Sequence record: OP870147.1
Direction: 5' to 3' (one strand)
DNA: 64,000 nt
Origin: Escherichia phage vB_Eco_F31
Of this stretch, positions 2,391 to 45,781 are shown piece after piece. Position 1 is the first letter of the stretch; each line of letters starts with the position of its first letter. The notes beneath the pieces were generated by a model. The model had not been told where the DNA came from. It worked only from the letters and a program-made list of their open reading frames with translations, and did not search any database. Made by a program: the position numbers and the translations under genes.

Positions 2391-3959
2391 ATGACTACTA
2401 TCAAAACTAAAGCTCAGCTCGTAGACAAATGGAAAGAACTGCTGGAAGGTGAAGGCCTGCCGGAAATCGCTAATAGCAAGCAGGCTATTATCGCTAAAAT
2501 CTTCGAAAACCAGGAAAAAGATTTCGAAGTATCCCCTGAATATAAAGACGAGAAAATCGCTCAGGCATTTGGTTCTTTCTTGACCGAAGCTGAAATTGGT
2601 GGTGACCATGGTTATAATGCTCAGAACATCGCAGCAGGTCAAACCTCTGGTGCAGTAACCCAAATTGGGCCGGCAGTTATGGGTATGGTTCGTCGTGCTA
2701 TTCCTAATCTGATCGCTTTTGATATTTGTGGTGTTCAGCCTATGAACAGCCCTACCGGTCAGGTATTTGCTCTCCGTGCAGTATATGGTAAAGACCCTAT
2801 CGCTGCTGGCGCTAAAGAAGCTTTCCATCCGATGTATGCCCCAGACGCGATGTTCTCTGGTCAGGGTGCTGCTAAGAAATTCCCAGCTCTGGCTGCTGAC
2901 ACTACTACTGTTGTAGGTGATATCTATACTCACTTCTTCCAAGAAACTGGTACTGTATATCTGCAAGCTTCTGCTGTCGTAACACTTGATTCTAGTGCAA
3001 CTGATGCAGCTAAATTAGATGCAGAAGTTAAGAAACAAATGGAAGCTGGTGCACTGGTAGAAATCGCTGAAGGTATGGCTACTTCTATCGCTGAACTCCA
3101 GGAAGGTTTCAACGGTTCTACCGATAACCCATGGAATGAAATGGGCTTCCGTATCGATAAACAAGTTATCGAAGCTAAATCTCGCCAGCTGAAAGCTGCT
3201 TACTCTATCGAATTAGCACAAGACCTCCGTGCAGTACACGGTATGGATGCTGATGCTGAACTGAGCGGTATTCTGGCTACAGAAATTATGCTAGAAATCA
3301 ACCGTGAAGTTGTTGATTGGATTAACTACTCAGCACAGGTTGGTAAATCCGGTATGACCCTGACTCCGGGTTCTAAAGCTGGTGTATTTGACTTCCAGGA
3401 CCCGATTGATATCCGTGGTGCTCGTTGGGCCGGTGAAAGCTTTAAATCTCTGTTGTTCCAGATTGATAAAGAAGCAGTTGAAATTGCTCGTCAAACCGGT
3501 CGTGGTGAAGGTAACTTCATTATCGCTTCCCGTAACGTAGTTAACGTACTGGCTTCAGTTGATACTGGTATTTCTTACGCTGCACAGGGTCTGGCTTCTG
3601 GTTTTAATACCGACACTACTAAGTCTGTATTTGCCGGTGTACTTGGTGGTAAATACCGCGTATACATCGACCAGTATGCTAAACAGGATTACTTCACCGT
3701 TGGTTACAAAGGCGCTAACGAAATGGATGCAGGTATTTACTATGCTCCTTACGTTGCACTTACCCCGCTGCGTGGTTCCGATCCTAAGAACTTCCAGCCG
3801 GTAATGGGCTTTAAAACTCGTTACGGTATCGGTGTTAACCCGTTTGCTGAAAGTTCCCTGCAGGCTCCAGGTGCTCGCATCCAGTCCGGTATGCCATCTA
3901 TCCTGAACAGCCTTGGTAAGAACGCTTACTTCCGCCGTGTATATGTAAAAGGCATCTAA
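2391..3959 (+). CDS. 23: Major capsid protein gp23
   Basis: 522-aa ORF; N-terminus MTTIKTKAQLVDKWKELLEGEGLPEIANSKQAIIAKIFENQEKDF and C-terminus ...GKNAYFRRVYVKGI recognised as near-identical to T4 gp23; followed by UUCG hairpin terminator. Confidence 0.97.
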   Translation: MTTIKTKAQLVDKWKELLEGEGLPEIANSKQAIIAKIFENQEKDFEVSPEYKDEKIAQAFGSFLTEAEIGGDHGYNAQNIAAGQTSGAVTQIGPAVMGMVRRAIPNLIAFDICGVQPMNSPTGQVFALRAVYGKDPIAAGAKEAFHPMYAPDAMFSGQGAAKKFPALAADTTTVVGDIYTHFFQETGTVYLQASAVVTLDSSATDAAKLDAEVKKQMEAGALVEIAEGMATSIAELQEGFNGSTDNPWNEMGFRIDKQVIEAKSRQLKAAYSIELAQDLRAVHGMDADAELSGILATEIMLEINREVVDWINYSAQVGKSGMTLTPGSKAGVFDFQDPIDIRGARWAGESFKSLLFQIDKEAVEIARQTGRGEGNFIIASRNVVNVLASVDTGISYAAQGLASGFNTDTTKSVFAGVLGGKYRVYIDQYAKQDYFTVGYKGANEMDAGIYYAPYVALTPLRGSDPKNFQPVMGFKTRYGIGVNPFAESSLQAPGARIQSGMPSILNSLGKNAYFRRVYVKGI

Positions 3960-25347: not shown

Positions 25348-25549
25348 TTATAATTTCAACATCAGCCCAATGTCCGTATCCAGGTATACGGTCTTCGATA
25401 GATAAATTTCTGTCATTTTTAGGCATTTTAATTGACGTAACGTATGGTTCTAAACGGTTTTCCGCGTAATATGGAAAAACGTCGGTTACACGATAAGTAA
25501 CTTCAATCATTTCCATACCAAACAATTTCTGGATTAATTTATTCAACAT
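25331..25549 (-). CDS. Hypothetical protein
   Basis: 72-aa ORF in 30.x cluster. Confidence 0.45.
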   Translation of the reverse strand: MLNKLIQKLFGMEMIEVTYRVTDVFPYYAENRLEPYVTSIKMPKNDRNLSIEDRIPGYGHWADVEIISVKDV

Positions 25550-25736
25550 GTTTCAACCCTTTAATAGGAGATAACTCTTTACCCATACGTATGTCAGAAG
25601 TCCCATCAACCCATTGAACAGCATACGCTTCATTGATAATTCCAGCGGCAGTTTTAAATTCGTTGAGAACTTTAAAAATCATCCCAGGGATTCCAACACC
25701 TTTTAATTGGACTGTTTGTGCTATTAAAAATTTCAT
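25539..25736 (-). CDS. Hypothetical protein
   Basis: 65-aa ORF in 30.x cluster. Confidence 0.45.
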   Translation of the reverse strand: MKFLIAQTVQLKGVGIPGMIFKVLNEFKTAAGIINEAYAVQWVDGTSDIRMGKELSPIKGLKHVE

Positions 25737-25790
25737 ATTTTTCCACTTACTAAAGAAATCATTATACTCTAATCCGTCCTTGGATGTACA

Positions 25791-26405
25791 CTACTTAATG
25801 AAATTAATTTCTACCGGATGAACAACAGGTTGAGCAGTGATATATTGAGTAATTGCTTTCATGACTAGAGCTTCAGAACCAGGATTTTTCTCAACGAATT
25901 CACGTGCTAGGTTATGAGCTTCGAGTTCACTCAATAAACCGGAACGCTGGCATCCACGGTCTTGAGTACCCTGTTCAGATAAAAGGACTACTACATATTT
26001 TTCATCGTCGTAGGGCTTAGCCAGTTGAGCAAATGTTCCTTTACTTCCAAAAGGAGAGTTATGTCGCCACATCACACCGTGAGGAGTTTCAACCTTCGTA
26101 TATTCGTGCGGTCCATTTTTCTTAGTTTCTTGATGTGGAACTTCATAGACCTTAGGGTTAGGACATTCAATAAAATGCTCATCTAAATCGGTCGAGAATA
26201 TTAAAGTAAAACAATTACTGAATTTACCAACACCGGCCTGATAAATTTTACCTTCAGAAGTTCTAATTTCACAAACTGAGCCGGCATCAGTAACTTCTAA
26301 AACTTCAAAAGGCTCAATAAGGTCATATGAGAACATGTTTTTAAGGCGTGGAGTAATATCCCCATTTTTAAAATTCATTTTATAAAAAGTATTAACTTTA
26401 AACAT
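25791..26405 (-). CDS. Hypothetical protein; start moved to internal ATG with RBS
   Basis: ORF-track start 26435 lies inside hairpin 26418-26433; ATG at 26405 is preceded by GAGGA (MFKVNTFYK...). Confidence 0.5.
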   Translation of the reverse strand: MFKVNTFYKMNFKNGDITPRLKNMFSYDLIEPFEVLEVTDAGSVCEIRTSEGKIYQAGVGKFSNCFTLIFSTDLDEHFIECPNPKVYEVPHQETKKNGPHEYTKVETPHGVMWRHNSPFGSKGTFAQLAKPYDDEKYVVVLLSEQGTQDRGCQRSGLLSELEAHNLAREFVEKNPGSEALVMKAITQYITAQPVVHPVEINFIK

Positions 26406-26417
26406 AATTTCCTCAGT

Positions 26418-26433
26418 GGGAGCCGAAGCTCCC
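26418..26433 (-). other. Intercistronic UUCG hairpin between two 30.x genes, no U-tract
   Basis: Minus strand GGGAGCuucgGCUCCC directly upstream of RBS GAGGA. Confidence 0.5.
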
Positions 26434-26440
26434 AATTAAT

Positions 26441-28617: not shown

Positions 28618-28926
28618 TTACATAAGAAGCAAACGTTCTACCGGAGTACCATCAACCGAAATTACTTTATCAAGGCGGAAAGAACGCCACTGACCTAACT
28701 TGGTATCGAATGCTCGAACTGATTCACGAGGTTCAGAACGAACTTCTGATGCCGGATTGTTATTTTCATATTTGACTTCAAGTTCATCGCGAGAAGCAAA
28801 CATAGTGCGTACCTCACCGTTAGCCTTTTCAAATACAACACAATGAACGCCTACAGACAGAATAGTTTTAATACGTTCACGAAGAACCATAGTTTCTTGT
28901 TCAGTTAAAATCATATTATTCACCAC
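28618..28926 (-). CDS. Hypothetical protein (T4 31.1 position)
   Basis: 102-aa ORF between cd and 31. Confidence 0.55.
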   Translation of the reverse strand: MVNNMILTEQETMVLRERIKTILSVGVHCVVFEKANGEVRTMFASRDELEVKYENNNPASEVRSEPRESVRAFDTKLGQWRSFRLDKVISVDGTPVERLLLM

Positions 28927-29497
28927 AAAAGTTTCGGATTTGTTCCCAATTCAGAGAACGAAGATTATTACGAGAGTACTGAATTACTTCAATACCGGCT
29001 TGTTTTAGAATGTCTGCCCAATTTTCAGGAGATCGGTCGTATAATTCTGCATATACAACCTTTTTAATACCTGACTGTGTAATAGCTTTAGTGCAATCAG
29101 GACACGGAGAAAGCGTCGTATATAACGTAGCACCTTCAATAGAATTACCTTTACGAGCTGCAAATAAAATTGCATTCAGTTCAGCATGGATTTCATTATT
29201 AGCAGACCATGCACTATGAGCGGCCCGATGTTCTTTAGCCAAAACAAAATTATCCACCCGTCCAAATGCTGTAGTGCCTTCTTTATGCCCAGCAACGATG
29301 ACCGGGCTTGGTTTATTCTTCAACCAACCGTTTTCGGATGCATGTTCGCAACAGTTTGTACCACCTGAAGGAGAGCCATTATAACCTGTAGAAATAATGC
29401 GTCCATCTTTTTCAATGACGGCGCCAACTTTCCATGAACAACATTTTGATTCTTGAGAAATCAGATATGCAATCTGAAGGTATGTGCTAGCTTTCAT
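28916..29497 (-). CDS. cd: dCMP deaminase
   Basis: 193-aa ORF; zinc-binding cytidine/dCMP deaminase motifs HAELNAI and SPCPDC; matches T4 Cd length. Confidence 0.93.
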   Translation of the reverse strand: MKASTYLQIAYLISQESKCCSWKVGAVIEKDGRIISTGYNGSPSGGTNCCEHASENGWLKNKPSPVIVAGHKEGTTAFGRVDNFVLAKEHRAAHSAWSANNEIHAELNAILFAARKGNSIEGATLYTTLSPCPDCTKAITQSGIKKVVYAELYDRSPENWADILKQAGIEVIQYSRNNLRSLNWEQIRNFCGE

Positions 29498-30489
29498 TAT
29501 TGAACCTTATTAATATAAGTTAACAGCTCTTTAGTTTGTTCCCAACTGATGCACGCATCGGTAACGGAAACGCCATAGGACATATTATCAGAAATTTTTT
29601 GATTTCCTTCATGTAGGAACGATTCTATCATAATTCCTTTGACCAAATCATTAGCTGCTAAATTTTTACCAATACCAATTTGATTGCTATAATGCCCATC
29701 AGCGTTTGCATGGCTACAGTCAACCATTACATAATGATTCAGACCTACTGCCCTTGCTTTGTTAGAAGCTTCTTGAATATCAGAAGAATGATAGTTCGGG
29801 CCGTTGGTCCCGCCACGCAATACGATATGCGTATTCTGATTACCTTCAGCTTCAACAATGCCTACAGTACCATCGACGTCCATACCCATATACCGATGAG
29901 GCCAGGCGGCACTATACATCGCGTCTGTAGCTACTTTAATAGAACCATTGGTTGCGTTCTTGAAGCCTACGCACATCGGTAGACCTGAAGCAATTTCACG
30001 ATGTGTCTGACTTTCAGTCGTACGGGCACCAATAGCAACCCATGAGAAAATACCAGAAAGATACTTAATCGTGAATGGGTCTAATACTTCAGTTGCTAAT
30101 GGAAGTCCCATACGTAGAAGTTTACGACACAATGTTCGTGCAACTATAAGACCGTGGTTCATATCAAAACTTCCGTCAAGATATGGATCATTTACAAGAC
30201 CTTTCCAACCTACGGTAGTTCGAGGCTTTTCAAAATAAACGCGCATCACTAACAGAACATTAGGAAGACGAGTTTGAAGTTCAGCCAGACGTTTGCCGTA
30301 TTCAACAGCAGCAATAGGGTCATGAATTGAACAAGGACCTACAACAATAAGTTTGCGTGGGTCTTCACCGTTCATAATCGAATTAACTTGTTCGCGATGA
30401 GAAGCCACTTGTGATGCGTAAGCTTCCGACAAAGGAATAATCTCGGCCAGTTCTTTTGGAGAAATAAGTTTTCCGACGACAGGTAACAT
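29497..30489 (-). CDS. 3-deoxy-D-arabino-heptulosonate-7-phosphate (DAHP) synthase, class I (AroF/G/H-like)
   Basis: 330-aa ORF with hallmark blocks VVGPCSIHDP, RVYFEKPRTTVGWKGL, IGARTTESQ.HRE.ASGL, GFKN.T.G.IKVA, HANA like E. coli AroG; not part of the T4 reference gene set as I recall it. Confidence 0.85.
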   Translation of the reverse strand: MLPVVGKLISPKELAEIIPLSEAYASQVASHREQVNSIMNGEDPRKLIVVGPCSIHDPIAAVEYGKRLAELQTRLPNVLLVMRVYFEKPRTTVGWKGLVNDPYLDGSFDMNHGLIVARTLCRKLLRMGLPLATEVLDPFTIKYLSGIFSWVAIGARTTESQTHREIASGLPMCVGFKNATNGSIKVATDAMYSAAWPHRYMGMDVDGTVGIVEAEGNQNTHIVLRGGTNGPNYHSSDIQEASNKARAVGLNHYVMVDCSHANADGHYSNQIGIGKNLAANDLVKGIMIESFLHEGNQKISDNMSYGVSVTDACISWEQTKELLTYINKVQ

Positions 30490-30609
30490 AACAATCCTTA
30501 GGAGATATAAACAGATTCTGATTCAACAATACCTTTAACCGGATTAGACAGGCTAAGTTGGTAGTGCTCAGATTTATGACCATTCTCGATAGTAATGAGA
30601 TAGCTCTCA

Positions 30610-30846
30610 TTATAGTGTTCCATATACTCGAGTTGCTTCAACTAAACCGTCACTGCCTAATTTAAGGCTAGTAATCTGGTCACCATCTTTAGGATTAACG
30701 ATTATGAGAAAAGAACGTGGAGATTCTTGAATAACTCGTAATGTTGCATCCTGGAAACGTTCAGACACTTTATTGATGAGTGCTTGAGCAAATTCTTTTA
30801 CTTTAATCTGAAATTCGTGTACTGTAATTGGATTTTCACTTAGCAT
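30610..30846 (-). CDS. Hypothetical protein
   Basis: 78-aa ORF with early promoter 30866-30905 upstream. Confidence 0.5.
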   Translation of the reverse strand: MLSENPITVHEFQIKVKEFAQALINKVSERFQDATLRVIQESPRSFLIIVNPKDGDQITSLKLGSDGLVEATRVYGTL

Positions 30847-30865: not shown

Positions 30866-30905
30866 TGGTAGAGTTATAGTATCACAACTCCACCATGTTG
30901 TAAAC
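30866..30905 (-). promoter_or_regulatory. Early promoter with 8-bp inverted repeat (one mismatch) flanking the -10
   Basis: Plus TGGTAGAGttatagtatcacaaCTCCACCAtgttGTAAAC. Confidence 0.5.
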
Positions 30906-37289: not shown

Positions 37290-39545
37290 TTAAAGCTTAC
37301 AAGCAGAACAATCTTCTGCTTTAGGTGTTTCTAATTCATAGTCGTCTGTACCAGACCCATCACGAGTGTTATGATAGTAGAGGTTTTTTCCGCCAAAGTA
37401 CCAGAAGTAAAGCAGATCGTCAAGCATTACTGACATTGGCACTTTACCTTTCTCAAATACTGCAGGGTCATAGTAAGTATTAGCAGAAGCAGATTGGCAC
37501 ACCCATTTCAACATGATAGCAACTTGGGTCAAATAAGGTTTATTACCTTTCTTAGCAAGTTTCCACGCGTAATCGTAAAGACTCATGTTATGTTCGATAT
37601 TAGGAACAACCTGTCGGAAGTTGCCTTCTTTAGATTCTTTAATACTTACTGGACCACGTGGTGGCTCAATCCCGTTTGTAGAGTTTGATACTTGACTGCT
37701 TGACTCACAAGGCATGAGTGCAGACAACGTTGAGTTACGAATTCCATGTTCTTTGAGTTCAGCTCGAAGTTCTTCCCAGTCACAGACGTAGTTCGGGGCT
37801 GCGATTTGGTCAATCTTTTTATTGTACCAGTCGATAGGTAATTCGCCTCTAGACCATTTAGTGTCTGAATAATACTCGCAACATCCTTTTTCTTTGGCGA
37901 GTTTGATTGATGCTTTGATAAGGCCATATTGTAATCTCTCAAACAATTCATGAGTCAAATCGTTAGCGTCTTCATATGAAGCAAAGTTAGAAGCTAACCA
38001 TGCAGCATAGTTCGTAACACCAACACCAAGATTACGACGCTTTTTAGCTTTTAAAGCTTCTGGAACCGGATAATCTTGATAGTCTAACAGGTTATCAAGT
38101 GCACGTACTTGTACTTCAGCAAGTTCATTAATTTTATCTTGGTCTTGCCAATCAAATTTATCTAATACAAAAGCAGATAATGTGCATAAACCAATTTCAG
38201 CATCAGGACCATTCACATCATTAGTTGGAATAGCGATTTCACAACATAAGTTACTCTGACGAATTGGAGCTTTTTCACGAATAAACGGAGTGTAGTTATT
38301 CGTGTTATCAACAAACTGTGGATAAATTCGAGCAGTACCAGAGCGTTCAGTCATGAACAATTCAAAGAGTTCTAGTGCTTTGATTCTTTTCTTTCTGATT
38401 GTTGGGTCTTTTTCAGCTTTCTCATAAAGCTCACGGAATTTATCTTGATCTTCAAAGAACGAGTAGTATAGTTCGCCTGACATTTCGTGAGGGCTAAATA
38501 AAGTAATATAATCATTTTTACCAAGGCGTTCCATCATAAGGTCATTAATCTGAATTCCGTAGTCCATATGCCGAATACGGTTTTCATCCACGCCTTTGTT
38601 ATTTTTCAGAACTAATAGGTTCTCTACTTCTAAGTGCCACATCGGATAATACGCTGTAGCAGCACCACCACGAATACCACCTTGAGAACAAGATTTTACT
38701 GCAGTTTGGAAATGTTTCCAGAATGGAATAACGCCCGTATGTCGAACTTCACCCATACCGATCTTAGAACCTTCTGCACGAAGCATACCAACGTTGATAC
38801 CAATACCAGCTCGTTTAGAAATATATTCAATAATTGATGCTGAAGTTTTGTTAATAGATTTTAACGAATCACCGGCTTCAATAACTACACAACTAGAGAA
38901 CTGGCGAGTTGGAGTACGAGCACCTGCCATAATTGGGGTTGGCAATGAAACTTGATGAGTAGAAACGGCATCATAAAAACGAATAATATGTTTCAAACGG
39001 TCATGAGTTTCGTCTTGATGCAATGCCATGCCAATAGCCATGATAGCAAACTGTGGAGTTTCATAAATCTTCCCAGTTGTTTTATCTTTAACTAGATATT
39101 TTTCTTTAAGCTGCATAGCACCAGCATAAGTCAGGTCAAAGTCTCGTTCATGTTTAATCTGTGAATCGAGATAAATGATTTCTTCTGCTGAATATTGAGA
39201 CAACATCTCAGGGTCATATTTGCCTTCATTAACACAATAAGAAATATGGTCGATAAAAGCAGGCGGTTCAAACTGCCCATATACATCTTTACGAAGTGCA
39301 AACATTAGCCCTTTGGCGGCGACATACTGATAATCAGGTTCTTCGACAGAAATCGAGTTAGCTGCAACTTTAATACAAATCTTCTGGATATCTTTGGTGC
39401 TCATCCCGTCGACAAGATGGGTCTTAATTTCTTCGTACAATTCATATGGGTCGATTTGTGTTCCTTCACATTGCCAGGTCAGAACTTGGATAATTTTCTG
39501 TGCATCAAAATTTTGGGATACGCCACTGCTCTTAGTTACTTGCAT
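37290..39545 (-). CDS. nrdA: Ribonucleotide reductase large subunit NrdA
   Basis: 751-aa ORF (T4 NrdA ~754 aa) with N-terminal ATP-cone and class I catalytic blocks. Confidence 0.93.
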   Translation of the reverse strand: MQVTKSSGVSQNFDAQKIIQVLTWQCEGTQIDPYELYEEIKTHLVDGMSTKDIQKICIKVAANSISVEEPDYQYVAAKGLMFALRKDVYGQFEPPAFIDHISYCVNEGKYDPEMLSQYSAEEIIYLDSQIKHERDFDLTYAGAMQLKEKYLVKDKTTGKIYETPQFAIMAIGMALHQDETHDRLKHIIRFYDAVSTHQVSLPTPIMAGARTPTRQFSSCVVIEAGDSLKSINKTSASIIEYISKRAGIGINVGMLRAEGSKIGMGEVRHTGVIPFWKHFQTAVKSCSQGGIRGGAATAYYPMWHLEVENLLVLKNNKGVDENRIRHMDYGIQINDLMMERLGKNDYITLFSPHEMSGELYYSFFEDQDKFRELYEKAEKDPTIRKKRIKALELFELFMTERSGTARIYPQFVDNTNNYTPFIREKAPIRQSNLCCEIAIPTNDVNGPDAEIGLCTLSAFVLDKFDWQDQDKINELAEVQVRALDNLLDYQDYPVPEALKAKKRRNLGVGVTNYAAWLASNFASYEDANDLTHELFERLQYGLIKASIKLAKEKGCCEYYSDTKWSRGELPIDWYNKKIDQIAAPNYVCDWEELRAELKEHGIRNSTLSALMPCESSSQVSNSTNGIEPPRGPVSIKESKEGNFRQVVPNIEHNMSLYDYAWKLAKKGNKPYLTQVAIMLKWVCQSASANTYYDPAVFEKGKVPMSVMLDDLLYFWYFGGKNLYYHNTRDGSGTDDYELETPKAEDCSACKL

Positions 39546-39841
39546 ATGTCCTCTATATTAAATTCGTCTTTAAAAAGTTTATTAACCACTAGAGCTATTA
39601 TATCACCATGACAGGCTTTTGGTTTACATGTGCATCCCAGACGCATACCACGTAAAGGTTCTAGATGAGCTTTTGTGATTTCTCCACACTTAATTCTCTT
39701 AATAAAATCCTTTTTGAAAAGCTCAATAGCTTCTTCTCGGGAAGAGGCATCCTTGCCTACATAATTTCCCCAGAATGTGCCACGATGAATATTAACATCA
39801 AAATCGGATTTATATTTATTCACAACGCGGCACATTTTCAT
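39536..39841 (-). CDS. Hypothetical Cys-containing protein (T4 nrdA.1 position)
   Basis: 101-aa ORF overlapping nrdA start. Confidence 0.5.
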   Translation of the reverse strand: MKMCRVVNKYKSDFDVNIHRGTFWGNYVGKDASSREEAIELFKKDFIKRIKCGEITKAHLEPLRGMRLGCTCKPKACHGDIIALVVNKLFKDEFNIEDICK

Positions 39842-40095
39842 TACATGTCCTCTGCAATAATTTCTTCGTATTCTTTAGGAGTCAAGACCGTGATATTAAA
39901 ATAAACCAACGGTTCTTTTTCTATACCGAATCCACCACAGAATTCACGATATTCATAAATTCGTTCATGTGAATAACAAATGAATCGTTCACCTTTAACT
40001 GTGATTTCACTATTTGGTGAAGGGATATCCAGTTCACTTGGATTTTTCATTTCAAAAATTGTGGTGCCATATGAATTAATAAAACGTAAAATCAT
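39841..40095 (-). CDS. Hypothetical protein (T4 nrdA.2 position)
   Basis: 84-aa ORF. Confidence 0.5.
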   Translation of the reverse strand: MILRFINSYGTTIFEMKNPSELDIPSPNSEITVKGERFICYSHERIYEYREFCGGFGIEKEPLVYFNITVLTPKEYEEIIAEDM

Positions 40096-40096
40096 T

Positions 40097-40957
40097 TTAT
40101 ACCGCCATTTTAGCTTTGATAGCTGGATGAGATTCGTAATTTTTAAGAACGAAATCAGAATGTGTCATCGTTCCAGTAACCCAGTCCATTTGGATTTTTG
40201 TAGGCCAATTCTCAAAATTACTAGGCCAATTAATTTCAAGAGAACATAACTCTTTAGGTTCACGACGAAGAACTTCTTTGCATTGTTCTACATGATTGCT
40301 GTAGATATGCGTGTTGCCGCCTGAGAACACTAAATCACCTGGGATAAGGTTACACATCTTCGCTACAATATGCGTCAAGGCAGCGTACGAGGCAATGTTG
40401 AACGGCAGGCCCAAGAAAACATCTACACTGCGTTGATACCATTGTAAATCAAGATGCCCATTACGCACATTAAATTGATAGAACATATGACAAGGAGGAA
40501 GAGCCATTTGGTCAATTTCGGCAGGGTTCCATGCAGAAACTATTTGACGACGATCATTAGGAAGAGCTTTAATACGGTCGATAGTTTTGACCAATTGGTC
40601 TACACCACCAAAATCACGCCATTGCTTACCATAAATAGGACCAAGTTCGCCGCTATGATATCCAAGGTCTTTTGCCTGATTTTCATAGTTGTCGTCCCAA
40701 ATAGTTTTACCTTGAATAAGACTACCATGAGTACGAATACGCAAATCATTAACATTGGTAGAACCAGACATGAACCACAGTAACTCGGCAATACAAGCTT
40801 TCCATGCTAATTTCTTAGTTGTTACTGCAGGGAATCCTTTAGTCAGATCCCAACGTAATTTAGTTCCGAACAGGGCAATAGTGCCGGTACCTGTACGGTC
40901 GTCTGTTTCGTAGCCATTTTCTAGGATATCATTAATCAGGTATTGGTATTGTTTCAT
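40097..40957 (-). CDS. td: Thymidylate synthase (uninterrupted, no intron)
   Basis: 286-aa continuous ORF with ThyA active-site block ...ALPPCHMFYQF...; same length as spliced T4 Td. Confidence 0.95.
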   Translation of the reverse strand: MKQYQYLINDILENGYETDDRTGTGTIALFGTKLRWDLTKGFPAVTTKKLAWKACIAELLWFMSGSTNVNDLRIRTHGSLIQGKTIWDDNYENQAKDLGYHSGELGPIYGKQWRDFGGVDQLVKTIDRIKALPNDRRQIVSAWNPAEIDQMALPPCHMFYQFNVRNGHLDLQWYQRSVDVFLGLPFNIASYAALTHIVAKMCNLIPGDLVFSGGNTHIYSNHVEQCKEVLRREPKELCSLEINWPSNFENWPTKIQMDWVTGTMTHSDFVLKNYESHPAIKAKMAV

Positions 40958-43620: not shown

Positions 43621-44274
43621 TTAATACTTACATGATTTGATTGTTTCTATGAACAATTTCTTAGCAGCATTTCCATCGATTTGAAGTATTTTTCGATATG
43701 CCTTTAATTTGGTAGAATAATTTTGCCAGACTAAATTGTCGGTAAGTTCGTCATGCTTATCTATAATATTCAAGAATGAATCTAACAACAAGAAGGTTTC
43801 AAATGAAATTATATTGCTTTGTAGCAATTTAAATATGTAGCTCGACTGAACTTTATTATTATAATCAAATATCTCTTGAAGCGCACTAACTTCCACTTTC
43901 TTACTGAAATAGTAGATGTTACGTACGTCTTCAGCAAACGTCTCCTTGGCTTGTTTGAGACGTCCAATATATTCCCTATAGAAAACTAATGCATCAGCGT
44001 CTGATATCTCACCGATCCATGCGTCTTGGTTAGCAACTAAGTTGCTTATGAATATCAAGGTGAGTTCCTTCAATTTATATTTCTCTGCTAGTTTTTCAAA
44101 GAAATATTTATCTCGGCGTTTTTGATACGCATTATCCGAAACACGCATGCACCAGTTATATTTGATTACGTCATACCGACCATTAAAATGTTGTTTGCAC
44201 ATCAAGTATAGTTTGTATACCGATTTTCCGTTAATATAACGTTCTCCATCAGGAGGCATGCGTATTTTAATCAT
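43621..44274 (-). CDS. 59: Helicase loader gp59
   Basis: 217-aa ORF MIKIRMPPDGERYINGKSVYKLYLM...KYNWCMRVSD... matching T4 gp59. Confidence 0.95.
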   Translation of the reverse strand: MIKIRMPPDGERYINGKSVYKLYLMCKQHFNGRYDVIKYNWCMRVSDNAYQKRRDKYFFEKLAEKYKLKELTLIFISNLVANQDAWIGEISDADALVFYREYIGRLKQAKETFAEDVRNIYYFSKKVEVSALQEIFDYNNKVQSSYIFKLLQSNIISFETFLLLDSFLNIIDKHDELTDNLVWQNYSTKLKAYRKILQIDGNAAKKLFIETIKSCKY

Positions 44275-44609
44275 AATAAGAAATCTAACGTATTAGTTTT
44301 TTCACCACGAGCAACTGATGGGCGAAGCATGTTTTCGTCAATTGCTTCGCTTGTAATTTTTTCAATAATTCCTGTAGGAATAAATTTAGCAAATTGTGTT
44401 TCTGGAATAGAATTTTCTTCCAAGAAAGCAGTTGTTGCTTCTAAATAAGACATACCAAATTGTTCAACCATGGATTCGATAATGAATCCGTTTTCTTGTC
44501 GGTCAAGCAATTTAGCGATATCATCTTTATCGTGTTTTACTGCTAATTCTTGTTCAGATAAACCGGCCTCATCAACCGGTTTAATATCACTTAGTGAAAA
44601 CTGTGTCAT
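44271..44609 (-). CDS. 33: Late transcription co-activator gp33
   Basis: 112-aa ORF (T4 gp33 112 aa) between dsbA and 59. Confidence 0.85.
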   Translation of the reverse strand: MTQFSLSDIKPVDEAGLSEQELAVKHDKDDIAKLLDRQENGFIIESMVEQFGMSYLEATTAFLEENSIPETQFAKFIPTGIIEKITSEAIDENMLRPSVARGEKTNTLDFLL

Positions 44610-44874
44610 AAAGCTCGACTACCTCTTCGTTTTCAGCTTCAAATTGGTCACGAGCGTCTTTATGATAAAGAGCTAACAAACGATTAAACATTTTTCCATC
44701 GACACCAAGCTCTTCTTTAGCACGAGTACGAATGTCTTTAATCAGTTCATTATAACCAGAAATTTTAAGTTTGTTATCGGAAGCTTCCTTGACTAGTTTA
44801 GCCAGTTCTTCACCATGCACATCTTGATTAAATTCAACTGCTTCTTTCTTAGCCATGTTTACCTCAGAATTCAT
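44587..44874 (-). CDS. dsbA: Double-stranded DNA-binding protein DsbA
   Basis: 95-aa ORF between rnh and 33; call by synteny. Confidence 0.7.
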   Translation of the reverse strand: MNSEVNMAKKEAVEFNQDVHGEELAKLVKEASDNKLKISGYNELIKDIRTRAKEELGVDGKMFNRLLALYHKDARDQFEAENEEVVELYDTVFTK

Positions 44875-45781
44875 TAATTACACTTGTTAATTTAGAAAGA
44901 CCAGATTTTACAAAGTATGAATAAATCTTGCCTTTAGGTTGTGGTTTATATGAGTTATAATACTCTATAATGGTTGAAGCAATATTATCAGGGATATAAT
45001 CAAAATCAATGAGAACCAAATTTTCTTGATACCGTTTATATTCTTCTGCACTTAATAATACTTCAGCTTGAGAACGATCGTTGGCAATTGCTTCAATAAT
45101 CGTTGTTTTCATGCTCGGAGTTCGTTCACCATCAACTCTGGTAAACCAGAAGTCACCACGAACTCGAACCGATGCAACGCCGTCTTTACGGTCACCTTTA
45201 AGAATTTTAGTCATGCAATCAATTTCAGCAGAACCGTTCTTAATTTTAACCCATTTTTTCTGTGGTGGCGACCACTGTTTAACGTTAGGATATTTGTGTA
45301 ATTGTGTAAAGTCACCATCTGATGCAACAATACATACTTTATGTCCGGCTAATGACAAATATTTAGTTAATACACCGATATGGTCATCCGCTTCATACTT
45401 GTCAATATCCATTACAACGTATGGCATGTATTTCTTAATCTCATCAACAACTTGATGGAGTGCAGTAAAATATCCTTCCCAATCCCACTTTGAAGCTTCA
45501 CGATCGGTTTTACGATTTTTCTTGTAATAGTAAGCAAAGTCACGACGCCAATAACCCGAAGTAGCATTATCCATACACAATACAAATTTTGTATAGCCTT
45601 GCTTACGGAACATCACTACGTTTTTACGAATTGAATTCAAGATTACATGGCGAACCATCGGAACGGTAATTTTATCGCCGTCTTCAAAGTTGTTTAATGC
45701 GGCTGCCAATGCAATGTTACTAAAGTCAGCAAGTGCAATACCTTCTTTGTAATCTTCATCCAACATCATTTCTAAATCCAT
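44864..45781 (-). CDS. rnh: RNase H (5'-3' exonuclease / flap endonuclease)
   Basis: 305-aa ORF (T4 Rnh 305 aa) with FEN-family acidic clusters; early promoter 45814-45843 upstream. Confidence 0.9.
   Translation of the reverse strand: MDLEMMLDEDYKEGIALADFSNIALAAALNNFEDGDKITVPMVRHVILNSIRKNVVMFRKQGYTKFVLCMDNATSGYWRRDFAYYYKKNRKTDREASKWDWEGYFTALHQVVDEIKKYMPYVVMDIDKYEADDHIGVLTKYLSLAGHKVCIVASDGDFTQLHKYPNVKQWSPPQKKWVKIKNGSAEIDCMTKILKGDRKDGVASVRVRGDFWFTRVDGERTPSMKTTIIEAIANDRSQAEVLLSAEEYKRYQENLVLIDFDYIPDNIASTIIEYYNSYKPQPKGKIYSYFVKSGLSKLTSVINEF

Follow-up and report, generated by a model that had tools for sequence, protein, structure and literature searches.

The formation of DAHP is the first committed step of the shikimate pathway, and the gene for a phage enzyme of this step, DAHP synthase, is already known, as the protein considered here is present in GenBank, RefSeq and PHROGs. 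An earlier note on this DNA, made from the sequence without database searches, proposed a search for other T4-like carriers. Homologues were found in 212 phage records, with matches spanning at least 80% of the protein. Many of them are annotated as AroG, aroF or phospho-2-dehydro-3-deoxyheptonate aldolase, and some as "hypothetical protein" or not at all. Annotated carriers within Mosigvirus are Shf125875 (YP_009100756), PhAPEC2, JS09, O157 typing phages 3, 6 and 13, p000v and phiC120; their proteins are 100% or approximately 99% identical to the one studied here and are likewise encoded between cd.2 and cd, with no substantive difference. The same gene constitutes PHROG 5045 (E=3e-182), which PHROGs assigns to the category "moron, auxiliary metabolic gene and host takeover", and the homologue from Klebsiella phage KLB31 has been discussed as an auxiliary metabolic gene (PMC11845039). 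The literature on function that we found consists of passing mentions (PMC8022965, PMC11845039) with no biochemistry, and we found there neither an assay of the enzyme nor complementation, transcript or phage-knockout data for any member of the phage clade described below.

Among solved structures the best relative is the Tyr-sensitive AroF from Escherichia coli (PDB ID 6AGM, 6AGL). The feedback pocket of AroG/AroF includes P150/P151, Q151/Q152 and S180/S181. The main chain of the inhibitor is bound by Q151/Q152 and S180/S181, and the substitutions P150L and S180F abolish inhibition (PMC9529685). In yeast, the Q166K allele of ARO4 is known to resist feedback inhibition. A glutamine-to-alanine replacement at the equivalent position made the enzyme of C. 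glutamicum unstable, and hence analogies based on single residues carry limited weight.

The window studied here is a 64,000-nucleotide stretch of Escherichia phage vB_Eco_F31 (F31 below; record OP870147.1), an RB69-like Mosigvirus coliphage. The ORF of 330 aa occupies positions 29497..30489 on the minus strand, exactly as given in the earlier note with respect to coordinates, strand and length, and its translation contains the five motifs quoted there, that is, VVGPCSIHDP, RVYFEKPRTTVGWKGL, IGARTTESQTHRE, GFKNATNGSIKVA and CSHANA. The same note placed the ORF downstream of cd, with the start of the ORF over the cd stop codon. Since these are minus-strand genes, the order is actually the reverse: the ORF lies upstream of cd, both on the minus strand, and it is the stop codon of the ORF that overlaps the cd start. 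At this TAATG junction (29495..29499, minus strand), the stop codon TAA of the DAHP synthase gene (29499..29497) and the start codon ATG of cd (29497..29495) have one base in common. Translationally coupled genes of T4 typically overlap in this way; coupling here, if any, would make the translation of cd dependent on that of the DAHP synthase gene. The dCMP deaminase gene cd (28916..29497, minus strand; Pfam PF00383, E=1.7e-26), annotated as such in Shf125875 and JS09, follows immediately downstream with the same direction of transcription, and the co-transcription of the two genes suggested earlier stands despite the corrected order.

A Shine-Dalgarno-like AAGGA, read from the sequence, is located at 30495..30499 (minus strand), 5 nt in front of the ATG of the DAHP synthase gene, and overlaps the stop codon of a small upstream ORF. 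A longer N-terminus was excluded, because an in-frame TGA (30525..30523) lies 11 codons upstream of the ATG with no ATG, GTG or TTG in between, and because the AAGGA is positioned 5 nt before the assigned start. No structured RNA or tRNA was found in the window.

The product is a real type I-alpha DAHP synthase of the AroF/AroG/AroH family. The earlier assignment to class I DAHP synthases is supported by family scores, by the predicted fold and by the retained catalytic residues. The protein matches Pfam PF00793 with E=5e-75 (252 bits against the cut-off of 25.5), the NCBIfam family TIGR00034 (aroFGH) with 427.7 bits (cut-off 173.2) and NF009395 with 455.1 bits (cut-off 343); the scores for the AroG-specific (363, cut-off 568) and AroH-specific (386, cut-off 463) equivalogs are below the thresholds. 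The match to the AroF structure 6agm has E=5e-105. The AlphaFold2 model (pLDDT 90.4, pTM 0.91) is a (beta/alpha)8 barrel, for which Foldseek yields TM-scores of 0.94–0.96 and rmsd of 1.5–1.8 Å to 4hso, 8e0x, 1qr7 and 1kfl; with respect to DAH7PS from E. coli and N. meningitidis, the predicted structure has TM 0.95 and rmsd 1.6 Å.

Residues C53, H260, E289 and D311 correspond to C61, H268, E302 and D326 of AroG, which we take to be the metal ligands as in the AroG structures, and are invariant in the alignment. The PEP-site residues R83, K88, G154, A155, R156, K177 and R225, as well as the KPRTT motif, are invariant across the aligned phage and cellular sequences; R83, K88, R90, R156, K177 and R225 have R92, K97, R99, R165, K186 and R234 as their AroG counterparts. 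In particular, C53 (in CSIHD), K88 (in KPRT) and H260 (in SHAN), the three residues whose loss the earlier note would have counted against the assignment, are retained. We also considered KDO8P synthase and other enzymes of the PF00793 family. KDO8P synthases bear a different motif at the KPRTT site, and these candidates were rejected, since KPRTT itself, the equivalog score for aroFGH and the structural matches all indicate DAH7PS. Judging from sequence and model, the phage enzyme should be catalytically competent and convert PEP and erythrose-4-phosphate (E4P) to DAHP.

The phage protein and E. coli AroF belong to the same family and have the same fold, metal tetrad and PEP site. In trimmed alignment columns, the phage protein is 51% identical to AroF, 47% to AroG and 43% to AroH; it is 20–26 residues shorter than these enzymes, approximately nine of the missing residues being N-terminal. 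The nearest cellular proteins (50–55% identity) come from diverse phyla, and GC3 equals 0.30, like that of the neighboring phage genes, compared to 0.50 for E. coli aroF. A recent capture of the gene from E. coli is ruled out by the low identity to AroF, the diversity of the cellular relatives and the phage-like GC3.

The phage copies from T4-like genomes form one old clade. On the neighbor-joining tree the 25 sequences of this type were monophyletic in 200 bootstrap replicates out of 200, and their branch adjoins the group containing AroF. Proteins from Enterobacter and Edwardsiella phages are 77% identical to that of F31, those from Klebsiella, Serratia and Erwinia phages 66–69%, and those from Proteus and Providencia phages 55–59%. 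Across genera the clade has been retained at 56–77% identity. The slot between pseT and cd is common to Mosigvirus, Marfavirus, Bragavirus and Winklervirus. The reading of the ORF as an auxiliary metabolic gene is supported, as a host-type metabolic gene lies between pseT and cd and is flanked by phage genes. The gene call itself is not new; this is a known ordinary feature with a modest testable twist. What is added here is the old clade, its common pseT–cd slot, the signature in the feedback pocket and the Mosigvirus cassette.

The canonical feedback pocket (AroG P150, Q151, S180) is absent from the phage protein, where the corresponding positions are occupied by I141, K142 and P171. This set is present in 23 of the 25 members of the T4-like phage clade; of the two exceptions, one has arginine at position 142 and the other retains the cellular proline at 141. 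The Q151 column is basic in 24 members, and proline occupies the S180 column in all 25. Among the 98 cellular homologues sampled, 90 have PQS and eight have near variants, with the phage combination in none. The IMG/VR sequences show the same split (10 versus 0/57). In addition, the N-terminal extension, although still present, is approximately nine residues shorter in all 25 clade members than in all 98 cellular homologues. The pocket difference bears on regulation rather than on catalytic membership of the family.

The first N-terminal residues of AroG and AroF have a role in inhibition. Their absence, combined with the replaced inhibitor-pocket residues, points to a deregulated enzyme, and by analogy with the known resistant alleles the phage protein is probably insensitive to feedback by Tyr, Phe and Trp, that is, a natural "fbr" allele. 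K142 shares an alignment column with Q166 of yeast Aro4, so that the phage clade naturally carries lysine where Q166K confers resistance in ARO4; the clade is likewise non-conservative at the columns of AroG P150 and S180, the sites of P150L and S180F. Each of these alleles is a single change, engineered or selected in the laboratory, in an enzyme that is otherwise regulated, whereas the phage protein combines three substitutions with an N-terminal truncation, and its deregulation is predicted. As an observation on the pocket as a whole, the replaced residues are almost invariant within the phage clade and not decayed, and the beta6a/beta6b hairpin is kept (strands 198–203 and 209–214 in the AlphaFold2 model). 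Near-invariance together with the kept hairpin is also compatible with retuning of the pocket to another ligand or with a structural constraint.

The same conservation can be read in favor of an ordinary feedback-regulated isozyme, one that tyrosine or some other aromatic amino acid would continue to inhibit and in which the substitutions only fine-tune the pocket. The phage enzyme groups with sequences of the AroF type, it retains D146, the P148 equivalent and L179 along with the hairpin, and it has glycine at the AroG S211 column, as in AroF; in yeast Aro3 and Aro4, glycine at this column reportedly goes with Tyr specificity. However, the two polar residues reported to hold the main chain of the inhibitor have been substituted (Q to K and S to P), P150 has become isoleucine, and at all three positions substitutions have been reported to affect or abolish inhibition. 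Given also the lack of about nine N-terminal residues, we regard continued feedback regulation as rather unlikely.

Expression of the gene was considered using a scan of the region for promoter consensus matches and terminator-like sites. The number of promoter matches is at the chance level (13 found, 13.8 expected), and the scan of the region found no dedicated promoter or terminator for the DAHP synthase gene. The T4 record contains an early promoter, Pe133295, between cd.2 and cd.3, and the cd.2–cd.3 intergenic sequences of T4 and F31 are nearly identical. The consensus match GTTTAC-18 nt-TACTAT at 30876..30905 (minus strand), located between cd.3 and cd.2, is the counterpart of this site and a probable early promoter. 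It is the only candidate supported by conservation, as the one site that matches the T4-record early promoter. No terminator-like site was found on the minus strand from this promoter to cd. The likely transcription unit has cd.2 as its first gene. Most likely, the DAHP synthase gene is transcribed early, on a message that would comprise cd.2, a 41-aa ORF, the DAHP synthase gene and cd.

The 41-aa ORF belongs to a cassette that distinguishes F31 from RB69. In T4 only the small gene cd.1 is present at this position, in agreement with the earlier note. RB69 and vB_Eco_mar005P1 are without the DAHP synthase gene, and so Mosigvirus phages exist without it. In the alignment, the Mosigvirus gene lies within a 1113-bp cassette, and RB69 lacks exactly the DNA between two copies of a 13-bp imperfect direct repeat. 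The left copy, ATAATGAGAGCTA (30601..30613, minus strand), is situated at the cd.2 stop codon and forms the left edge of the cassette; the right copy, ATAATGAAAGCTA (29488..29500, minus strand), spans the stop codon of the DAHP synthase gene together with the start codon of cd, and forms the right edge. The copies match at 12 of the 13 positions, and their spacing, 1113 bp, is also the size of the indel in the comparison with RB69.

The resident cd.2 (78 aa; 30610..30846, minus strand; PF24005, E=7.9e-36) is 97% identical to cd.2 from RB69. The left part of the cassette contains the 41-aa ORF (MEHYNESYLITIENG..., 30498..30623, minus strand), a C-terminal fragment of a foreign gene of the cd.2 family; the JS09 record lists it as a hypothetical protein. 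It matches positions 44–76 of the 78 positions of the Pfam PF24005 profile (DUF7320, the cd.2 family; E=1.2e-6, 28.8 bits), as well as PHROG 15876 and 1504, and it aligns to the C-terminal half of cd.2, being nearer to the type found in Enterobacter and Edwardsiella phages than to the resident cd.2. Outside Mosigvirus, the gene order was inspected in three genera, represented by Klebsiella PWKp18, Proteus PM2 and Serratia X20. There, the upstream cd.2 is full-length rather than a resident copy plus a fragment, and from zero to two additional small ORFs separate the DAHP synthase gene from cd. The Mosigvirus cassette probably came from another T4-like phage. The foreign cd.2 fragment, the 13-bp repeat and the empty site in RB69 provide a small, clean example of accessory-gene exchange among T4-like phages.

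Taken jointly, we consider it rather likely that the gene encodes a competent auxiliary DAHP synthase, transcribed early, probably insensitive to feedback and brought into Mosigvirus in a cassette from a T4-like phage. The phage would carry the enzyme as an auxiliary metabolic gene, and its early transcription would start at the conserved promoter that precedes cd.2. As host transcription is off during infection, the phage enzyme would maintain the flow of carbon into chorismate and aromatic amino acids after the shut-off. In the T4-like phage clade, the loss of the N-terminal regulatory segment and the replacement of the inhibitor-binding residues would have abolished feedback by Tyr, Phe and Trp, and the gene may have reached Mosigvirus in the 1.1-kb cassette, inserted between cd.2 and cd. 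It seems that a whole clade of enterobacterial T4-like phages has evolved a feedback-insensitive DAHP synthase by changes at the same positions that are mutated deliberately in metabolic engineering. If true, this would show clearly how a phage can free a host pathway from its allosteric control, and the protein would be a compact, ready-made deregulated enzyme for shikimate-pathway engineering.

The benefit might also lie elsewhere. The enzyme could act as a metabolic valve, its drain on E4P and PEP pulling the non-oxidative pentose-phosphate pathway toward pentoses, or it could supply chorismate-derived pABA and folate; the folate branch would feed the folate-dependent synthesis of dTMP and hm-dCMP by the phage. 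The gene lies inside a nucleotide-metabolism block, where cd adjoins it and frd, a td-length ORF and an nrdA-length ORF are within approximately 10 kb; the related phage Shf125875 annotates nrdA, nrdB, td and frd in this block. The DAHP synthase is probably co-translated with cd, and a deregulated enzyme would be an unregulated sink. However, position in the hyperplastic T4 region is a weak sign of functional linkage, and both T4 and RB69 lack the gene and yet replicate well. We find such a valve improbable, and equally give little credence to the broader proposition that an enzyme either deregulated or retuned serves mainly as an E4P/PEP sink or a chorismate/pABA/folate source and not for aromatic amino acids. 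If true, this role, along with the neighboring cd, td, frd and nrd genes, would serve the very high demand of the phage for nucleotides and for one-carbon transfers that depend on folate. A neutral passenger left over from transfer, or a decaying pseudo-enzyme with a non-catalytic role, might be expected from the patchy presence of the gene in Mosigvirus and from the variable region rich in small ORFs of unknown function, but is highly improbable given that the ORF is intact in the 212 records, the checked catalytic residues are invariant across genera, the codon composition is fully phage-adapted and non-synonymous changes are few (dN/dS 0.18–0.30 between Mosigvirus alleles, which have very few differences).

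Finally, a link of the gene to the arabinosyl-hmC DNA modification of Mosigvirus was considered and dropped, because RB69 is without the gene and yet presumably keeps the modification.

The 330-aa minus-strand ORF at 29497..30489, which an earlier note had read as a class I DAHP synthase, is present in the window, and every motif quoted for it was found in the translation. It had been placed downstream of cd (dCMP deaminase; 28916..29497, minus strand), with its start overlapping the cd stop. Since both genes are read on the minus strand, this order is reversed: the ORF lies upstream of cd, and the last base of its TAA (29499..29497) is also the first of the cd ATG (29497..29495). Orientation excepted, the observation is real. 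In the sequence, AAGGA is located 5 nt ahead of the ATG. An in-frame TGA occurs 11 codons upstream of the ATG with no alternative start between them, hence the short N-terminus of the protein is real. A σ70-like site on the opposite strand inside the ORF (29665..29693, plus strand; 10/12 with an extended TG) is probably meaningless, given that site counts across the region are at chance level.

The protein matches PF00793 (DAHP_synth_1) in Pfam with E = 5e-75, and scores 427.7 bits with the NCBIfam aroFGH equivalog TIGR00034 (cut-off 173) and 455 bits with NF009395 (cut-off 343). Its scores with the AroG-specific and AroH-specific NCBIfam models are under their cut-offs. The nearest solved structure by sequence is that of E. 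coli AroF, the Tyr-sensitive isozyme (6agm, E = 5e-105). AlphaFold2 was used to model the protein from an alignment of 39 sequences; the model has pLDDT of 90.4 and superposes on the E. coli and N. meningitidis DAH7PS structures at TM 0.94–0.96 and rmsd of about 1.6 Å. For residue comparison, the protein was aligned with AroF, AroG and AroH of E. coli MG1655. The metal ligands C53, H260, E289 and D311 (AroG C61, H268, E302 and D326), the PEP/E4P-site residues R83, K88, R90, G154, A155, R156, K177 and R225, and the KPRTT motif are retained, with residue roles as in AroG crystal structures. Hence the alignment contains no loss of the catalytic Cys, Lys or His, which the earlier note had named as evidence against the enzyme. 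The class I DAHP synthase reading is correct.

The absence of the gene from T4, mentioned in the earlier note, was confirmed: only cd.1 occupies the slot there. Many other T4-like phages carry it. A tblastn search over 50,697 phage records, with coverage of at least 80% of the protein required, yielded homologues in 212 of them: 139 at 95% identity or above (Mosigvirus), 47 at 60–80% (Enterobacter, Edwardsiella, Klebsiella, Serratia and Erwinia phages) and 26 below 60% (Proteus and Providencia phages and others). The gene is thus already known and widely annotated, in many records as AroG, aroF, DAHP synthase or phospho-2-dehydro-3-deoxyheptonate aldolase, and in PHROGs v4 as phrog_5045 (E = 3e-182; category 'moron, auxiliary metabolic gene and host takeover'). 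The domain is mentioned in the phiC120 genome paper (PMC8022965), and the DAHP synthase of Klebsiella phage KLB31, presumably a homologue, has been put forward, purely hypothetically, as an auxiliary metabolic gene (PMC11845039). No enzymology, complementation, knockout or transcript data were found in the literature on phage DAHP synthase. A natural feedback-resistance signature and a recombination scar, described below, are modest new details beyond the existing annotation. Distant homologues with 35–48% identity occur beyond the T4-like clade in OQ594355 (Aeromonas phage HJ05, 79 kb), MT837410 and MT838377 (human faecal phage contigs) and CAKLQH02 (Acinetobacter phage MD-2021a), which suggests either that the gene was acquired independently or that these records contain contaminating bacterial sequence.

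The closest cellular proteins are just 50–55% identical and come from mixed phyla. In the neighbor-joining tree of 123 sequences, the 25 sequences assigned to the T4-like phage type are monophyletic in 200/200 bootstraps, and their clade adjoins a group containing E. coli AroF. This set includes an outlier, P0022, from a contig that has T4-like genes as well. GC3 equals 0.30 for the DAHP synthase gene, 0.26 for cd, 0.32 for pseT and 0.50 for E. coli aroF. The pseT...cd slot is common to Mosigvirus, Marfavirus (Klebsiella PWKp18), Bragavirus (Proteus PM2) and Winklervirus (Serratia X20). Recent theft from a host was rejected based on the cellular identity, monophyly, phage-like GC3 and common slot, and the enzyme represents a phage lineage of long standing.

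Within Mosigvirus, RB69 and vB_Eco_mar005P1 match the region only in the cd and cd.2 flanks, and alignment of the window with RB69 gives a difference of exactly 1113 bp. At this site RB69 has an overlap between the cd.2 stop and the cd start (…CACTATAATGAAAGCTAGC…; RB69 locus around 820–850). The extra DNA of the window has at each end one copy of an imperfect 13-bp direct repeat, ATAATGA(G/A)AGCTA, with 12/13 positions matching; its minus-strand copies at the cassette edges are ATAATGAGAGCTA (left, 30613..30601) and ATAATGAAAGCTA (right, 29500..29488). The first 120 nt of the extra DNA contain a 41-aa ORF (30498..30623, minus strand), located between cd.2 and the DAHP synthase gene, which overlaps the stop of the resident cd.2 and has its own stop inside the DAHP synthase Shine-Dalgarno sequence. 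It is 'hypothetical' in JS09 and is not annotated in Shf125875. The ORF matches positions 44–76 of the 78-position Pfam profile DUF7320 (E = 1.2e-6) and is closer to cd.2 of Enterobacter/Edwardsiella phages (SYLITIE…VES.SVY) than to the resident Mosigvirus cd.2; it is the C-terminal remnant of a second, foreign gene of the cd.2 family. Among DAHP synthases outside Mosigvirus, those of the same Enterobacter/Edwardsiella-type phages are the closest (77% identity), and in one of these phages (locus L016) the gene abuts cd, as in the window. An RB69-like ancestor may have gained the 3' part of the foreign cd.2 together with the DAHP synthase gene, with another T4-like phage as donor; the left crossover would have used the short GA(A/G)AGCTA homology, and the right one would have fallen at or within the cd start. 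RB69 would then either retain the empty site or have secondarily lost the cassette via the repeat. In the RB69 record, cd has 510 nt (169 aa; locus 835–1344) followed by a 76-nt gap, compared with 582 nt (193 aa) in the window and T4; the short form may reflect a frameshift, a premature stop or a sequencing error in an old record.

The cd.3–cd.2 intergenic region of the window contains (G)GTTTAC and TACTAT separated by 18 nt (30905..30876, minus strand). This region closely matches its T4 counterpart (T4 locus 3785–3835), in which the T4 record places early promoter Pe133295, and no terminator-like sites were found on the minus strand ahead of cd. Therefore early co-transcription of cd.2, the 41-aa ORF, the DAHP synthase gene and cd is likely, as judged from the sequence.

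All 25 clade members lack about nine N-terminal residues, having 8–12 before the reference column vs at least 16 in 98/98 cellular homologues. The first N-terminal residues of AroF and AroG have a reported role in inhibition. In the inhibitor pocket (AroG numbering), the clade-fixed changes are P150→I141, Q151→K142 and S180→P171, accompanied by the milder L175→I, A202→S and F209→Y. The I-K-P combination is found in 23/25 members, one other having Arg at 142 and P0022 having Pro at 141. The 98 cellular homologues have P-Q-S (90) or near variants (8), and none has the phage combination. In IMG/VR, I-K-P is present in 10/10 T4-like contigs and 0/57 other viral-labelled contigs, mostly giant-virus MAGs. 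Dozens of GVMAG-labelled contigs there encode type I DAHP synthases with 40–47% identity which, unlike the T4-like clade, keep the canonical P-Q residues (and S, where the search pattern matched).

The inhibitor main chain is bound by Q151/Q152 and S180/S181, and AroG becomes feedback-resistant via P150L and S180F; Q151, L175, A202, F209 and V221 matter too (PMC9529685). In yeast Aro4 (chain 1hfb), Q166 of LDTISPQYL occupies the same column as phage K142 of LDPFTIKYL. ARO4 Q166K is known to confer feedback resistance (PMC7513737, PMC6512747). The clade thus has this very Q→K change by nature, with two more changes at resistance positions and the N-terminal truncation in addition. The phage enzyme is probably not inhibited by Tyr, Phe or Trp. 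Single-residue analogies are imperfect, since the C. glutamicum Q159A enzyme was unstable. It is also possible that the pocket was retuned rather than lost, because the substituted residues are conserved within the clade, not decayed, and the β6a/β6b hairpin is still present in the predicted structure.

T4-type infection switches off host transcription; the annotation of Shf125875, a related Shigella phage, includes homologues of Alc and Alt. Should inhibition indeed be lost, early unregulated DAHP synthase would maintain or raise chorismate flux regardless of aromatic amino-acid levels. Candidate benefits are aromatic amino acids, folate or quinone precursors, or a mere E4P/PEP sink. RB69 lacks the gene.

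The window belongs to a Mosigvirus, an RB69-like relative of T4. It is 94–97% identical to Shf125875 at the DNA level but is distinct from this phage, and several further differences between them were observed. Region 25540..26399 is not collinear with it (about 300 bp there); the 214-aa ORF 25791..26435 (minus strand) has no Pfam match and matches PHROG 17531 (unknown function) over its full length. Two ORFs, DUF4326 (39536..39841, minus strand; 101 aa, E = 4e-21), in a stretch unaligned with Shf125875, and DUF5496 (39841..40095, minus strand; 84 aa), are flanked by a 751-aa ORF (37290..39545) and a 286-aa ORF (40097..40957), which have the sizes of Shf125875 nrdA and td, respectively. Near 44271 the window lacks a counterpart of the homing-endonuclease gene segH, which is annotated in Shf125875 between gp59 and the next gene, whose product is given as 'late promoter transcriptional regulator' (note gp55). 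At 44271–44275 the alignment skips Shf125875 locus 44468 to 45140, and downstream the identity falls to 85%.
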